DNA from: Patescibacteria group bacterium
GTDB lineage: Bacteria > Patescibacteriota > Minisyncoccia > Portnoybacterales > UBA2143
Direction: 5' to 3'
Assembly (NCBI GenBank): GCA_018830295.1
Contig: JAHJSM010000002.1
Span: 115,131 to 179,130, forward strand
Length of the DNA stretch: 64,000 nt
Part shown: positions 32,122 through 48,589 of the stretch, piece after piece
How the letters are laid out: the number at the start of each line of letters is the position of its first letter
Numbering within the stretch: the first letter of the stretch is position 1
Made by a program: the position numbers and the translations under genes
The notes under the pieces: generated by a model
What the model saw: only the letters and a program-made list of their open reading frames with translations
What the model was told of the DNA's origin: nothing
Databases searched by the model: none

Positions 32122-32205
32122 ATCCCCATTATACCAAAAAAACATTCTCTTGGCGATTTTTCCCGCAAAAAATCCCTTTAGCAAAATTCTGCCAAAGGGA
32201 TTATT

Positions 32206-32523
32206 TTATTTTTTCCTCCTTTTGTTTCTAATTGTCTCTCTTTGAATAGAAAGCTGAAGCTCATAAAGTTCGTCCCATCTCCAACTTCTCTTTCGCCTTT
32301 TCTTCATTACCCCGGTTATCTTGCTTTCATCAAGAAAAACCTCTTTGATAAACTGAATTGCTTCATGCGGCGTCAAATTTCCGAAAATATCATGCCACCT
32401 GCTGTGAAATCTTCTCGGGAAAATTTTTACATTATCTGACTCATTTCCCCCGCCCCTACTCTCTGGAATGATATGATGCTTAGATGGTTCATTTTTTCCG
32501 TTTCTACCATTTTTTCTAGCCAA
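32206..32523 (-). CDS. HNH endonuclease
   Basis: HHIIPESRGGGNESDNVKIFPRRFHSRWH H-N-H motif. Confidence 0.7.
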   Translation of the reverse strand: MARKNGRNGKNEPSKHHIIPESRGGGNESDNVKIFPRRFHSRWHDIFGNLTPHEAIQFIKEVFLDESKITGVMKKRRKRSWRWDELYELQLSIQRETIRNKRRKK

Positions 32524-32565
32524 AATATCCTCCTTTATCTTTTATATTTTTAAGTTACTATTTTC

Positions 32566-33321
32566 TTATTCTCTCCCTATCACAATCATCACCTTTTCTA
32601 TTTCCTCAATCGGCTCGTGATAACCGGTTGGATAATCTCTGATGGCATTAAATAAAATTTCTTCCTGATAACGATATTTTTCTCCTCTTATTGTTCCTGG
32701 GTCATTGACAATAAATTCCCCACTGTTCGCGTCATATCCCCAAATCACGATCATATGCCTTTCTGGTCCGGGCGGGGTAAAATATGGATTTCCCAATAAT
32801 TGACCATTAGCCGGTATAATTACCACACTACCTTTCTCTATTTCGTTAATAATATCTTGAAGAACAATCTCTCTTTTCACTTCCGCGGCATTATATCCAA
32901 AATATCCTTTAATAATTCTTTCCATCGTGTCATAACTGGATGTATCTCTGTATTCGCCAAACTCTTTTTTTTGATAATCAGACATAGCGATAATTTCTTC
33001 TTTTGCCTCTTCTTCGTTCAGCCCCTTTCCTCTTGCCCAAGAAACGGCCATCAGAGAGGTCGCTTCTTCGCAACCGTCTTGAAATATTGGATTATTCCAT
33101 TCAGCAAATGGCGCTTGAGGGATAAAAGGGACGTCAAATATCTCATAACTGTTTTCCAATAATATTTCTTCTTTTGTTGTTGCTACTACTGCTTCTTCTT
33201 TCTTCTCCTCCAAAGATTTTTTCGGAAAAAAGAAAAAAAATGCCATCAAAACAACGGCTAAAACAACAATCCAAACTATCTTATATCTCTTTAAAAAATT
33301 CTCCATCTTGCTTACCGCCAA
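32566..33321 (-). CDS. secreted/membrane-anchored C39-like papain-fold peptidase
   Basis: N-terminal TM; FQDGCEEATSLMAVSWA ... MIVIWGYDANSGEFIVNDPG resembles Peptidase_C39_2. Confidence 0.55.
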   Translation of the reverse strand: MAVSKMENFLKRYKIVWIVVLAVVLMAFFFFFPKKSLEEKKEEAVVATTKEEILLENSYEIFDVPFIPQAPFAEWNNPIFQDGCEEATSLMAVSWARGKGLNEEEAKEEIIAMSDYQKKEFGEYRDTSSYDTMERIIKGYFGYNAAEVKREIVLQDIINEIEKGSVVIIPANGQLLGNPYFTPPGPERHMIVIWGYDANSGEFIVNDPGTIRGEKYRYQEEILFNAIRDYPTGYHEPIEEIEKVMIVIGRE

Positions 33322-33329
33322 TAATTTTA

Positions 33330-33815
33330 CTAACTATCATATTTTTTGGCCGCGCGCTTTATTAATGTTGAACTTGACCTAATCTTTCTGCCGCAACCAT
33401 CTATTAACTTTATATTTAATTTTTTGCAAATTTCTGCTTCGGGGATATCGTTTAAATTTTTCCTGTCTCCGCCATTGGCAAAAATATCTGGCTTTATCTT
33501 TTGTAAAGACTTACAAACTGTTTGATCGTTGTCAATAGAAATAAAAACCTCATCAACCCATCTAATCGCTTTTAGTATTTCGGCTCGGTCTTTTTTATTC
33601 ATAAAAGGAATACTGCCCTTTAATTTTACTTGCTTGTCATTATTTACTATTACTACCAAACAATCACCAAGCAATTTAGCTGTTTTAAGTAAATCTAAAT
33701 GACCAATATGAAGCGGATTAAAGTATCCGCTTACAGCTACTATAATCTTTTTTTTCATATAAATATTTTTGCCCATTTTATAATTCCTCACCCAATAAAA
33801 TTTTATATTTCCCAA
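33330..33815 (-). CDS. cytidylyltransferase-like (HIGH-motif) nucleotidyltransferase
   Basis: VSGYFNPLHIGHLDLL motif; about 160 aa, resembling RfaE-II/TagD-type adenylyl/cytidylyltransferases. Confidence 0.65.
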   Translation of the reverse strand: MGNIKFYWVRNYKMGKNIYMKKKIIVAVSGYFNPLHIGHLDLLKTAKLLGDCLVVIVNNDKQVKLKGSIPFMNKKDRAEILKAIRWVDEVFISIDNDQTVCKSLQKIKPDIFANGGDRKNLNDIPEAEICKKLNIKLIDGCGRKIRSSSTLIKRAAKKYDS

Positions 33816-33829
33816 AAAGATCTTTCATA

Positions 33830-34696
33830 TTAATTTTTCTCTTTCAATCTTTTACTACTTTTTGGAGGTTGTAAATAATTTTTCCCACAGACGACTTTTT
33901 TGCCTGTTTTACTCTCTAATTCTTTTCTCGCGTTTTTAGCGATACGACCTCCTTTTCTGGCTGGCGTTTTGCTTTCTTCCAAACCCCTTGCTTCCATCGT
34001 TTCGGCTATTTGCCGAGTAGAAAGTTCTGCCAACGCTGTAAAAACCAACTCTGCGTCCGACATATGGTCGCGCAAGTTTTGCGTTTTTAATTTTTTCAAA
34101 TTTTTATGCTCTTTGACCGACAAATCGCTCCATTCTTTGTGGATAATATTTGTTAAAATAGCGTATTCGTCTTTTTCTTTGACTTTGTTGTCTTTCCAAT
34201 AATCAGTCAGTTTATTTCTGATTTCTTGCCCCATCATTCTTTGCTGTATCCACTTCTTGCTTCGTCCCATTCTTTGCCAATAATCCCGACTGCGATTTAA
34301 CGCTTTTCCCGGATCATTCATTTCCTCTATTCTTTCATAACCGACTTTTGCCAGCCACAGTTTTACTGGCTCAGCTTTTGGCGACGGAACGGACTGGATG
34401 AGACGCAACAATGTTTCTACATCAGATGTATCAGTCAAATAAAATTTTCCATCTGCTGCCTCAAATTTCAGTTGGTGACAATTTGACACCGACTCGTTTC
34501 CCTCTTTTTTAAGTCTTTCTTTAAGTTTATTCCAATACTTTCTGGCAGTTTGATAATCGGCTTGTTGAATTAACGCTTGAATAATATCTACTACCGAAAA
34601 ATACCATTTTTCTTTTTTCTCGTCCCAAAGACGGCGGATTTTTTGACCTTCAAAAATTGTAATTTGTTTATTGTTTATGCTTTTAATTGTTCTCAT
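33830..34696 (-). CDS. Bro-N domain protein (phage antirepressor / DinD-like)
   Basis: N-terminal ITIFEGQKIRRLWDEKKEKWYFSVVDIIQAL Bro-N pattern. Confidence 0.55.
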   Translation of the reverse strand: MRTIKSINNKQITIFEGQKIRRLWDEKKEKWYFSVVDIIQALIQQADYQTARKYWNKLKERLKKEGNESVSNCHQLKFEAADGKFYLTDTSDVETLLRLIQSVPSPKAEPVKLWLAKVGYERIEEMNDPGKALNRSRDYWQRMGRSKKWIQQRMMGQEIRNKLTDYWKDNKVKEKDEYAILTNIIHKEWSDLSVKEHKNLKKLKTQNLRDHMSDAELVFTALAELSTRQIAETMEARGLEESKTPARKGGRIAKNARKELESKTGKKVVCGKNYLQPPKSSKRLKEKN

Positions 34697-34797
34697 AAAA
34701 TTTTATATTTCCCTAAAAAATCCTTCATACCCTCATTATACCAAAAAACCGCCCCCTTGGCGATTCCTAAAAAAGGTTCCTGACGCCTTTTTTGTCC

Positions 34798-47218: not shown

Positions 47219-47307
47219 AAAGTTATAATTTACTTTTTACAATTTAATGCTAACAAAAACAATAATCTTTGTCAAAGCGAAAAAGATTCCTGACGGCTTT
47301 TTTCCAA

Positions 47308-47342
47308 GGGAACAGTCCCCCGTCCGCGGGGGCTGCCCCCGT
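47308..47342. repeat. GC-rich palindromic element (GGGAACAGTCCCCC-GTCCGC-GGGGGCTGCCCCC)
   Basis: family member. Confidence 0.75.
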
Positions 47343-47415
47343 CATCTCTTTCTTTGAAATATTATTTTAGTTTAAAAAAAATTCCCGACATCTTCAATTA
47401 AATTTAGTTTGTTGA

Positions 47416-47847
47416 TTATTTAATTCCCAAAAGAAAATAAAGAAGATAATTATATCCCGAATGGATAGCGATAGCCGTTAGAAGTCCTAAAACAGGTTTC
47501 TTTTTGTTAATGAAATAACAAAGAATTATAGCCGCTATTACATGGATTAGTATTGGATAAACCGAAACAGAAATTCCTTTGTTGATATATCGGACAATGG
47601 CTTCTAACACTCCCCAGCCAAGACCAAAGAAAAAACTATAAGAAACTTTTATTTTCCAAATTAAAATTGAAAAATATCTGCCTAATTCTTCATAGAGAGG
47701 AGAAAAAATGACAGGAAGCGCCAAAATAAAAAAATTATTTTCTATGCTGTTAAGTTTAATTGTAATTAAAACAAGAATTAAAAACAACAATCCGAAGCCG
47801 ATTATGCCCGCAAAAAAAGTGACTAAAATATTAATTAGGCGGATCAT
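47416..47847 (-). CDS. CPBP/Abi-like intramembrane protease-family membrane protein (start at Met 47847)
   Basis: 4-5 TM; PLYEELGRYF, ILIHVIAA, AIHSGYN motifs resemble the CPBP motif set. Confidence 0.4.
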   Translation of the reverse strand: MIRLINILVTFFAGIIGFGLLFLILVLITIKLNSIENNFFILALPVIFSPLYEELGRYFSILIWKIKVSYSFFFGLGWGVLEAIVRYINKGISVSVYPILIHVIAAIILCYFINKKKPVLGLLTAIAIHSGYNYLLYFLLGIK

Positions 47848-47850
47848 TGT

Positions 47851-47995
47851 GTCGCAGTGGTTTTTTACTGGCAAGCGGACAAACAAAAAAGGGCACCCGC
47901 TTACCGACAGCCCTTTCGGAACTGTCTACTGCCTTTCGGCAGCAACCACTGCGACATGATGATAAGACGGATGCCCGTCTTTATATCGCAGTGGA
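47851..47995 (-). ncRNA. structured 5' leader RNA (three-way junction with two GNRA hairpins, mutually exclusive closing helices) upstream of the CPBP gene
   Basis: 12-bp helix GTCGCAGTGGTT/AACCACTGCGAC; hairpins CUGCC-GAAA-GGCAG and GACAGUUCC-GAAA-GGGCUGUC (minus strand); third copy of TCGCAGTGG at 47987 allows alternative pairing. Confidence 0.45.
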
Positions 47996-48149
47996 TTTTT
48001 TACCATACCTTATAGACCAAACTATAAGGGTTAGGCAATCAAATTGTTATTTGTAGATTAGCATAAATCAGAAATTTTTGGAAGCATGCGAAAAGATTAA
48101 ATTAATTTGAAAAAGGTCATCAGGAACTTTTTTATCGTTAAAGCGGAAA

Positions 48150-48449
48150 TTATCCAATAAGTTTCTGAATGTCTTCTTGGCTAAACTCTTTTTTGTAATC
48201 AATTAATTTGGGATGACTAATGCTTCGCAATTCCGCGTCGTAGGTTGCCATGATGCTCCTTGCTCTTTTTTGGTAAACCATCCAGTTCCTCTGCGAGGCA
48301 AATTCATCAAACTTATTTAAGCCATCAAATCCATCGCCAAATTTGGCGAAGGCTATAAAAAAATCGAGATTTTCTGTAAAATCATATTTATCAATCCTGT
48401 CTTTTATCCAATTTGAAAAATCCCTGCCAACGCCGAGCCATTGATACAA
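48150..48449 (-). CDS. AntA/AntB-like antirepressor domain protein (phage-type)
   Basis: WLGVGRDFSNWIKDRIDKYDFTENLDF matches the AntA-domain pattern. Confidence 0.5.
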   Translation of the reverse strand: MYQWLGVGRDFSNWIKDRIDKYDFTENLDFFIAFAKFGDGFDGLNKFDEFASQRNWMVYQKRARSIMATYDAELRSISHPKLIDYKKEFSQEDIQKLIG

Positions 48450-48589
48450 TTCTCTGGCGTTAACAAATTTTTTTTCTCGCCATTAAAATCTTTTTGAATT
48501 ACTTTGATATTTATAAGGTCGTTCATTGTTTTGAATTATTTTTTTACATTATATCAAAAAACCGCCCAAAAGGCGATTTTTATATTTCC

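Follow-up and report, generated by a model that had tools for sequence, protein, structure and literature searches.

We describe a 31-nt module that recurs eight times in a 64,000-nt stretch of Patescibacteria DNA (contig JAHJSM010000002.1; the whole stretch is called the window below) and reads AATCGCC-N5-GGCGRTT-TTTTGGTATAAT. The module probably unites an intrinsic terminator and an extended −10 promoter in one element, with frequent leaderless starts behind it. Viewed as RNA, the terminator would consist of an A-tract, a stem (AAUCGCC/GGCGRUU) with an unconstrained loop of 5 nt, and a U6 run. Viewed as DNA, the same bases would serve as a sigma-70-type promoter: the 5′ arm of the hairpin would provide a −35-like TCGCCN, the 3′ arm and the T-run would be the 17-bp spacer, and TGGTATAAT would be the extended −10 box. 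Transcription would be expected to start 6–8 nt past TATAAT, a position occupied by the A of an ATG in ∼45% of copies and in six of the eight in the window, where the predicted mRNA would have no leader; one of these six starts opens an 11-codon mini open reading frame (mini-ORF) that would be stop/start-coupled to the real gene. The anatomy of the module, its conservation, the constraints on particular positions and the spacing to the start codon are read directly from the sequences.

The component parts are of known kinds (intrinsic terminator, extended −10 promoter, leaderless start), and their fusion with a near-fixed stem is probably new. We found in the searchable literature no description of the module, and none of leaderless mRNAs or promoters in the Candidate Phyla Radiation (CPR); the module has probably gone undescribed so far.

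The module in the window and across Patescibacteria

Sequence reading and a fuzzy scan located eight copies, all on the minus strand and identical in length and register, at the places where an initial annotation of the window had put them. The consensus AATCGCC-N5-GGCGGTTTTTTGGTATAAT with ≤3 mismatches matched the window seven times, against 0.00 matches expected from 100 dinucleotide shuffles; the copy that it did not recover is the one at 32128, whose 3′ arm has decayed. A run of T6–T7 directly follows the stem in all eight copies. The −10 box is TGGTATAAT in six of them, TGATATAAT in one (48548) and a decayed TATAGA in one (38777), and six of the seven exact occurrences of TGGTATAAT in the window lie within modules. 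The hairpins were judged by folding energy, as a simple terminator scan had not listed those of the module on the minus strand; the energy is −8.0 to −12.7 kcal/mol in seven of the eight copies, and the loops vary. No Rfam family was found on any module at the gathering score or at E ≤ 5, other than chance matches.

The first copy (32128..32158, minus strand as are all that follow) reads AATCGCC-aagag-AATGTTT-TTTTGGTATAAT, its hairpin being lost (−1.6 kcal/mol). Copies 2 (34735..34765; −11.0 kcal/mol) and 3 (36026..36056; −11.3 kcal/mol) agree exactly with the consensus; the former lies 32 nt past the stop of a TspO/GerM gene and the latter has a divergent plus-strand gene upstream. Copy 4 (37916..37946) has the loop taaaca and a hairpin of −8.0 kcal/mol. 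Copy 5 (38777..38807), which carries the TATAGA box, is a relic with no minus-strand gene downstream. Copy 6 (41345..41375) is a perfect palindrome, AATCGCC-ttttt-GGCGATT (−12.7 kcal/mol), 19 nt past the stop of an HSDR_N gene, and copy 7 (42368..42398) has the 3′ arm GGTGGTT, with G-U pairing (−10.3 kcal/mol). Behind copy 8 (48548..48578; −11.8 kcal/mol), which has the TGATATAAT box, come a leader of 21 nt and an AntA-like gene with a frameshift. One 198-nt duplication includes both copies 5 and 8; the flanks of the other copies are unrelated.

All eight copies are confined to 16.5 kb of a variable accessory region of lower GC content. There were none in the remaining 47 kb of the window, and none in 10 kb further left, which were read from the near-identical metagenome-assembled genome (MAG) GCA_018820055.1.

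The initial annotation had named the presence of the module beyond the window as a test. A 5′-anchored scan with the pattern ATCGCC-N10-TTTTTTGGTATAAT, one genome per species, gave 102 matches in 100 genome stretches. The hairpin is retained in ∼88% of these matches, or about 90 copies, in which the free N10 takes the form N5+GGCGR; the tail of the N10 has the frequencies G94, G89, C82, G91 and A47/G44, and there is no preference in the loop. The hairpin-bearing matches are nearly all labelled as Patescibacteria, Parcubacteria, Paceibacterota, Buchanan-, Komeili-, Staskawicz-, Moran- or Magasanikbacteria, with further ones in third-party annotation (TPA) MAGs labelled as Saccharibacteria. About ten matches have no hairpin and come from bacteria outside the CPR; they look like chance. 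A 3′-anchored scan of metagenomes (GGCGGTTTTTTGGTATAAT) yielded at least 120 matches. The presence of the same signal in many ultra-small Patescibacteria (CPR) genomes argues that the module is a lineage-wide gene punctuation of Patescibacteria and not a local oddity.

Two further suggestions of the initial annotation found no support in the wider search. It had likened the module and its genes to phage morons; there were no matches in IMG/VR viral contigs, which argues against a phage origin, and no phage structural gene or integrase is present among 30 ORFs of the accessory region. It had also treated the module as a device of this genomic island, whereas in other Patescibacteria the module precedes unrelated genes, housekeeping genes included, and ∼10% of copies follow tRNA genes.

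Hairpin and probable promoter in the same positions

The two halves of the module were assessed separately. For the hairpin, we took 205 unselected sites of the type ‘T-run + extended −10’ and looked for an abutting GC hairpin. Such a hairpin is present at 77 of the 205 sites (38%), against 2.3 (1%) in shuffles. The usual stem accounts for 53 of the 77; in the other 24 the stem is unrelated to the TCGCC type (e.g. GCCCGAGA/TCTCGGGT and AACCATTC/GAGTGGTT), and the occurrence of unrelated stems at the same position suggests that a hairpin as such is favoured there. The 3′ arm is conserved even though the 5′-anchored scan left it unconstrained, and the loop is free. Since the dominant stem is invariant, a classical covariation test is impossible; its place is taken by these counts of unrelated stems and by the register-dependent T/C contrast given below.

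The surroundings of the hairpin also fit a terminator. An A-tract (50–88% A) stands 5′ of the stem and is not seen in hairpin-free promoters. We considered this tract as an UP element and rejected the idea, as hairpin-free promoters have no A enrichment at that place; the A-tract thus belongs with the hairpin. In other genomes, 84 of 120 copies lie <400 nt after the end of a same-strand ORF, about 50 of them at 4–100 nt, and 11–12 of the 120 have the 3′ end of a tRNA or tmRNA-like gene upstream. A strict tie to tRNA genes as island integration sites was rejected, given that only ∼10% of copies follow a tRNA.

It could be argued that the module is a plain terminator or a plain promoter and that its other half is a by-product of AT-rich intergenic DNA. 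T-runs and TATAAT-like hexamers are indeed common at 37% GC, and a promoter-like scan gave 96 sites where 60 were expected. However, conservation extends jointly to the hairpin, the −10 box with its TG, the fixed spacing and an ATG at +6 to +8; the hairpin frequency far exceeds that in shuffles (38% versus 1%), and TCGCC hairpins are rare without a −10 box. This joint conservation already contradicts the by-product explanation, which we regard as very improbable.

The promoter half was visible in a consensus promoter scan of the window, which reported TCGCCA-17-TATAAT with TG; TCGCCA, at 17 bp, matches the −35 element at four of six positions. Among unselected hairpins followed by a T-run, a strong −10 box comes next in 41 of 81 cases when the stem is of the TCGCC type and in 45 of 395 when it is another (odds ratio 8, p = 5e-14). 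The supposition of the initial annotation that a hairpin and T-run are fused to an extended −10 box is therefore supported by comparison of sequences.

The 5′ arm of the hairpin appears to be under a double constraint. Among the 3′-anchored metagenome matches listed, those with a 5-nt loop have the 5′ arm ATCGCC in 48 cases and ACCGCC in none, whereas ACCGCC, GCCGCC and ACCGCT predominate when the loop has a different length. Either U or C could pair with the second G of the 3′ arm, and C would pair better. The T of ATCGCC is position −28 with the final T of TATAAT as reference, and the −35 register is the only one in which it is invariant. The same loci also contain 63 extended −10 promoters that have no hairpin; upstream of their −10 box, strong conservation is confined to T at −28 (81%) and T at −27 (62%), where a −35 element spaced by 17 bp begins. 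Being invariant in the −35 register and conserved in hairpin-free promoters, the T is thus kept at the place that sigma would recognize. Opposite this T, the 3′ arm has A in 47% and G in 44%, either of which can pair with U in RNA; a fixed T with a variable partner is in keeping with an RNA hairpin plus a −35 element and speaks against a symmetric DNA operator. The hexamer ATCGCC looks like a compromise between a GC-rich stem and a −35-like T-x-G.

The genes behind the module do not form one family: 90 of 113 downstream proteins are singletons, and a tie to one gene family was rejected on that count. They include an apparent Obg-like GTPase, a DEAD-box helicase, glycosyltransferases and a P-type ATPase (identities read from the sequence). 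Since the downstream genes are mutually unrelated, the module would be a generic expression signal not bound to a particular gene family.

The regularity of the stem raises another possibility, that of a regulated promoter. The repeat AATCGCC-N5-GGCGATT would then be a palindromic operator that overlies the −35 element and spacer and binds a repressor or activator conserved in Patescibacteria; the downstream genes would constitute a regulon and the RNA hairpin would be incidental. In favour of this, the 19-bp inverted repeat stands at a fixed distance to the −10 box, the stem is far more uniform than those of ordinary terminators (53 of 77 hairpins) and is associated with promoters at the odds ratio of 8, and the hairpin is kept in copies without a co-directional upstream gene. 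Yet the half-sites are asymmetric, with the invariant 5′ T facing A or G; 24 sites have unrelated hairpins at the same position; the genes behind the sites have no function in common, and housekeeping genes are among them; the flanking A-tract and T-run, as well as the placement past ORF and tRNA ends, fit a terminator; and no candidate regulator was identified. We therefore consider an operator unlikely.

Separately, we noted a second, unrelated hairpin, AAAACCGCTCTGGAG-n-CCAGGGCGG, fused to the same layout T6-GGTATAAT-N6-ATG. It occurs in metagenome loci L111, L114, L130, L139, L145, L166, L173, L186, L191, L208 and L215, always upstream of the same conserved gene (MT.TH...), and these loci appear to be one homologous locus of the same design.

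Several points weigh against the combined terminator and promoter. Half of the window copies (four of eight), those without a co-directional upstream gene, keep the stem, so termination of upstream transcripts is not the sole reason for it, and this is the chief difficulty for the terminator; in these copies the stem may simply accompany the promoter, or it may serve an additional purpose. With 7 bp plus an A-U extension the stem is short, and the dominance of a single stem sequence across the phylum is unusual for terminators; such uniformity could also mean a dedicated binding protein or spread by recombination. On the promoter side, TCGCCN matches TTGACA at three to four of six positions, and extended −10 promoters frequently do without a −35 element. 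Both multi-genome samples were anchored on part of the motif, and a few hairpin-bearing matches stand under other MAG labels as deposited (Gammaproteobacteria, Omnitrophota). Termination, the site of initiation and leaderless translation are themselves inferred from sequence.

In a more speculative reading, the module would be a ‘stop-and-restart’ device. The U-tract that releases the upstream transcript would be the spacer of the next promoter, so that a retained polymerase would be handed over directly; a co-directional array would give serial monocistronic leaderless mRNAs, with expression coupled to upstream transcription; and the near-fixed ATCGCC/GGCGRT stem would allow a single 31-nt element to fulfil both tasks throughout Patescibacteria, either as a compromise in sequence or as a site bound by a lineage-specific factor. 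The idea is suggested by work on recycling termination with facilitated re-initiation at the nearest promoter, as seen for Escherichia coli RNA polymerase in vitro only (PMC11347151). Taken together, these propositions are a long shot.

Start codons and genes behind the module

The spacing between the −10 box and the start codon was followed across genomes. At 217 unique TTTTTGGTATAAT sites, an ORF-opening ATG stands 6, 7 or 8 nt past TATAAT in 48, 17 and 29 cases, respectively (94/217, 43%); the background for an ORF-opening ATG is 0.5% per position. For modules of the TCGCC type a close start is present in 82 of 181 (∼45%), and the start codon is ATG in 81 of the 82. A Pribnow box 6–8 nt before the start defines the leaderless ‘group C’ genomes of GeneMarkS-2 (PMC6028130). 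The start codons thus sit where transcription should begin, and with the A of ATG at the predicted start position the mRNA would have no leader. Leaderless mRNAs, which the initial annotation had taken to be implied by the window copies, are accordingly predicted from the comparative data as well.

A Shine-Dalgarno-like motif was found in 4 of 62 longer leaders (15–60 nt, loci L001–L220), a count in which the choice of start codon was crude. These genomes may make little use of Shine-Dalgarno pairing. As a side observation, many housekeeping genes in the window have A-rich sequence, and no GGAGG, ahead of the start codon.

In the window the ATG lies exactly 6 nt past TATAAT in five copies (32121, 34728, 36019, 37909 and 41338) and 7 nt past it in one (42360); the first of these distances had already been noted in the initial annotation for several copies. 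All genes listed here are on the minus strand. Copy 1 precedes a 69-aa ORF (31912..32121) that looks truncated and has no Pfam match; by eye its N-terminus AFIDGQNLY resembles the start of the full-length module-driven protein of locus L005, which is putatively NYN/LabA-like. Behind copy 2 the start opens the 11-codon mini-ORF MKDFLGKYKIL* (34693..34728), whose TGA overlaps the ATG (as ATGA) of a 288-aa Bro-N gene (33830-34696); given this overlap of stop and start, the mini-ORF may act as a coupling ORF. The mini-ORF and a second one, MKDLFGKYKILLGEEL* (∼33776-33826, minus strand), resemble the N-termini of the local membrane proteins MKKFLIKYKIVL and MENFLKRYKIVW, and both look like remnants of replaced genes.

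Copy 3 precedes the gene for a DUF498 protein of 103 aa (35708..36019). In the short protein, position 1 of the Pfam model already falls on residue 3, in support of the short start. Behind copy 4 lies the gene for a membrane-anchored nuclease of the SNase/OB-fold type (36995..37909); its homologue in locus L078 has the same module upstream, with the ATG at 7 nt. The 234-aa protein behind copy 6 (40634..41338) has no assigned family. In its L021 homologue (∼90% identical) the module is kept and the leader is 16 nt long, which suggests that the leaderless and the leadered mode can switch between close relatives. Copy 7 precedes a 321-aa HSDR_N_2-domain protein (41395..42360), and copy 8 the frameshifted AntA-like pseudogene (48150-48526).

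The Pfam boundary of DUF498, the relatives in L021 and L078, and the gene calls on the source contig k141_539904 (ENA ERZ27247117), where short starts are used for three module-driven genes, all agree with the short starts. Several other ORF calls run through the module, a 349-aa call on the same contig among them. The ORFs that extend through it in the window (40634-41365, LAIFWYNG..., and 35708-36070, ...AVFWYNK...) are best read as translation artefacts, and the shared N-terminus of the AIFWYNG type that the initial annotation had called spurious is indeed the translated module.

The same annotation had pictured each gene of the island as an insulated terminator–promoter–gene unit. This holds in part. 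A co-directional gene lies directly upstream of four of the eight copies; the copies at 36026, 37916, 38777 and 48548 have divergent genes or gene remnants upstream and the hairpin is nonetheless kept, and behind the copy at 38777 there is no gene to be insulated.

The accessory region and known systems

The first 1–31 kb of the window carry apparent housekeeping genes (ftsW, murG, groESL, dnaG and rpoD, from reading of ORF translations). From 31.6 to 61 kb there is a co-directional run of unrelated accessory genes in single-gene units, among them HNH, C39-like peptidase, cytidylyltransferase, Bro-N, TspO/GerM, DUF498, hydrolase, SNase, radical SAM/SPASM, HSDR_N, UDG, DUF4238 and RhuM; ORFs at 52.4–57.2 kb are taken, by reading alone, for a restriction-modification system. 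The GC content drops from ∼0.40 to 0.29–0.35 in this region. No integrase, transposase, terminase or phage structural family was found among the 30 island ORFs scanned, and a prophage or transposon context was rejected for lack of recombinase or phage genes among them.

Related MAGs (L005/L112, L021, L013 and L078) contain genes and intergenic pieces of the window in different order. In L078 the homologue of the 569-aa gene has the module and its SNase gene as next neighbour downstream, whereas in the window ∼7 kb of other genes separate the 569-aa gene from the SNase gene. Similarity to L078 ends 6 nt upstream of the module (window 37952), and similarity to L021 ends 13 nt upstream of it (41388); the module thus stays with its downstream gene.

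Such reordering is what one would expect if the module, alone or with its gene, were a mobile or recombinogenic promoter cassette shuffled at the hairpin, in the manner of attC, repetitive extragenic palindromic (REP) sequences or miniature inverted-repeat transposable elements (MITEs). A cassette would explain the clustering: eight copies in 16.5 kb of variable, lower-GC DNA against none in the other 57 kb examined, the 198-nt duplication holding copies 5 and 8, the breaks in similarity 6–13 nt upstream of the module, and the density of the exact pattern, with six copies within 10.3 kb in the window and at most two in any 8-kb genome block. Looser variants of the −10 box (TGGTAGAAT, TGATATAAT and others) give 3–5 copies per 8 kb in L060, L078, L045, L014 and L098. 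Against a cassette, no integrase or transposase is present among the 30 island ORFs, there are no terminal inverted repeats or target-site duplications, and the 19-nt hairpin has no core site of the GTTRRRY type and carries a promoter, unlike attC. The loops differ between copies, so these are not recent offspring of one master; elsewhere single copies precede conserved genes or follow tRNAs; and viral contigs gave no matches. Integron attC sites were rejected for the missing integrase among the island ORFs scanned and for the short hairpin with its own promoter, and REP or MITE elements for the differing loops and for flanks that are unrelated outside the one duplication. We find a mobile cassette improbable and prefer the merged terminator and promoter.

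Several features of the region were noted in passing. Two structured RNAs score above the Rfam gathering threshold: LOOT RNA (70.9 bits; 47906-48037, minus strand), upstream of a small membrane protein (47416-47846), and DUF3800-V RNA (66.9 bits; 57595-57692, plus strand), which adjoins a DUF3800 gene (57710-58189). A radical SAM/SPASM maturase-like gene (39112-40452, plus strand) is overlapped at its end by a 56-aa ORF (40436-40606, plus strand) with a Cys-rich tail, ...NCYCYGPAYPPCK. Two paralogous 63-aa genes (36136-36327 and 38530-38721, both on the plus strand; 81% DNA identity) each have a GGAGG ribosome-binding site, and the first also has a TTGACA-16-TAGAAT promoter. The radical SAM/SPASM gene and the small plus-strand genes may be a cluster for peptide modification (ribosomally synthesized and post-translationally modified peptides, RiPPs); the expression signals of the plus-strand genes in this area are quite unlike the module.

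A 77-aa basic, coiled-coil-looking protein (42466-42699, minus strand) has no Pfam or NCBIfam match. Its gene is present in one intact copy and three truncated 3′ remnants (38907-38999, 48678-48770 and 50090-50182), in most cases a short way 5′ of a module or promoter. With 40 clusters, mostly ≥70% identical and all unnamed, the family is small, and it is multi-copy in related MAGs (four copies in L013; also L005).

The intergenic DNA contains repeated elements as well. Long GC-rich palindromes, GGGGACAGTCCC-n6-GGGACTGTCCCC and GAGGACACCCCTCG-n4-CGAGGGGTGTCCTC, recur between genes of this otherwise AT-rich genome and are often found just 5′ of the module (42403-42447, 50776-50820, 47297-47345, 45038-45052 and ∼13740-13810; 37977-38011; also in L005 and L021). 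They look like REP-type repeats, and GAGGACACCCCTCG-n4-CGAGGGGTGTCCTC has different downstream genes in the window and in L021. A conserved segment of ∼65 nt with a long hairpin, AAAAGGTCAGACC...GGTCTGACCTTTTT, and a conserved interior occurs at 38820-38884, at 48587-48655 and in L005 (1783-1851), with 95–97% identity to L005; possible identities are a small RNA and a miniature repeat. Other intergenic blocks that recur are the hairpin AAAAGNCGTCAGGAANCTTTTT and the leader AAATAAATAAAAGATTTGGAGGGG(ATT), at 34770-34795, 47280-47305, 48853-48878 and 51914-51939, and at 48815-48872, 49948-50005 and 44980-45016. Judged from these repeats, the intergenic DNA of the region appears to be built from a few shared pieces.

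To our knowledge, almost nothing is known about the control of transcription and translation in Patescibacteria, because few of them can be grown. A conserved, easily recognized 31-nt signal that marks where transcripts end, where promoters lie and where leaderless mRNAs probably start would open gene expression in the CPR to study and would correct annotated gene starts, and it offers a compact native promoter–terminator part for new genetic systems in Patescibacteria. It would also be a case of overlapping codes in a streamlined genome, with the −35 element, the spacer and the terminator in the same positions. Should leaderless initiation hold at ∼45% of these promoters, Patescibacteria would count among the leaderless-rich bacteria, next to Actinobacteria and Deinococcus. 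Reduced ribosomes have been reported for Patescibacteria, and a leaderless-rich repertoire, if true, would bear on them.

The module shares traits with several known systems and differs from each. Like intrinsic terminators, the bidirectional kind with its A- and U-tracts among them, it has a GC stem-loop with U6 on the 3′ side and an A-tract on the 5′ side and sits past ORF and tRNA ends; their stems are idiosyncratic, while that of the module is near-fixed (ATCGCC/GGCGRT) across the phylum, its U-tract would double as a promoter spacer, and half of the window copies have no co-directional gene upstream. Like extended −10 (TGnTATAAT) sigma-70 promoters, it has TGGTATAAT at 17 bp from a −35-like hexamer with a conserved first T, but its −35 region and spacer are self-complementary and the hexamer is TCGCCN, not TTGACA. 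As in leaderless genes of Actinobacteria and Deinococcus, a Pribnow box lies 6–8 nt upstream and AUG stands at the predicted 5′ end; the promoter of the module, unlike theirs, is welded to a terminator hairpin.

With phage morons the module has in common single genes with a private promoter and a hairpin terminator, though it is found without a prophage context or IMG/VR matches, serves housekeeping genes and has its hairpin upstream of the fused promoter. Neisseria Correia elements, REP sequences and bacterial interspersed mosaic elements (BIMEs), and integron attC sites are likewise short palindromic intergenic repeats that may act as terminators or promoters and mark the boundaries of variable genes. 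The module differs from them in being much shorter, at 31 nt, in having no terminal inverted repeats, target duplications, attC core sites or integrase, in its unconserved loops, and in being shared across classes rather than genome-specific; attC sites are ∼55–140 nt long, with conserved core sites, an adjacent IntI integrase and promoterless cassettes. Recycling termination shares with the module a terminator adjacent to the next promoter; in the module the predicted termination point would lie inside the promoter itself.

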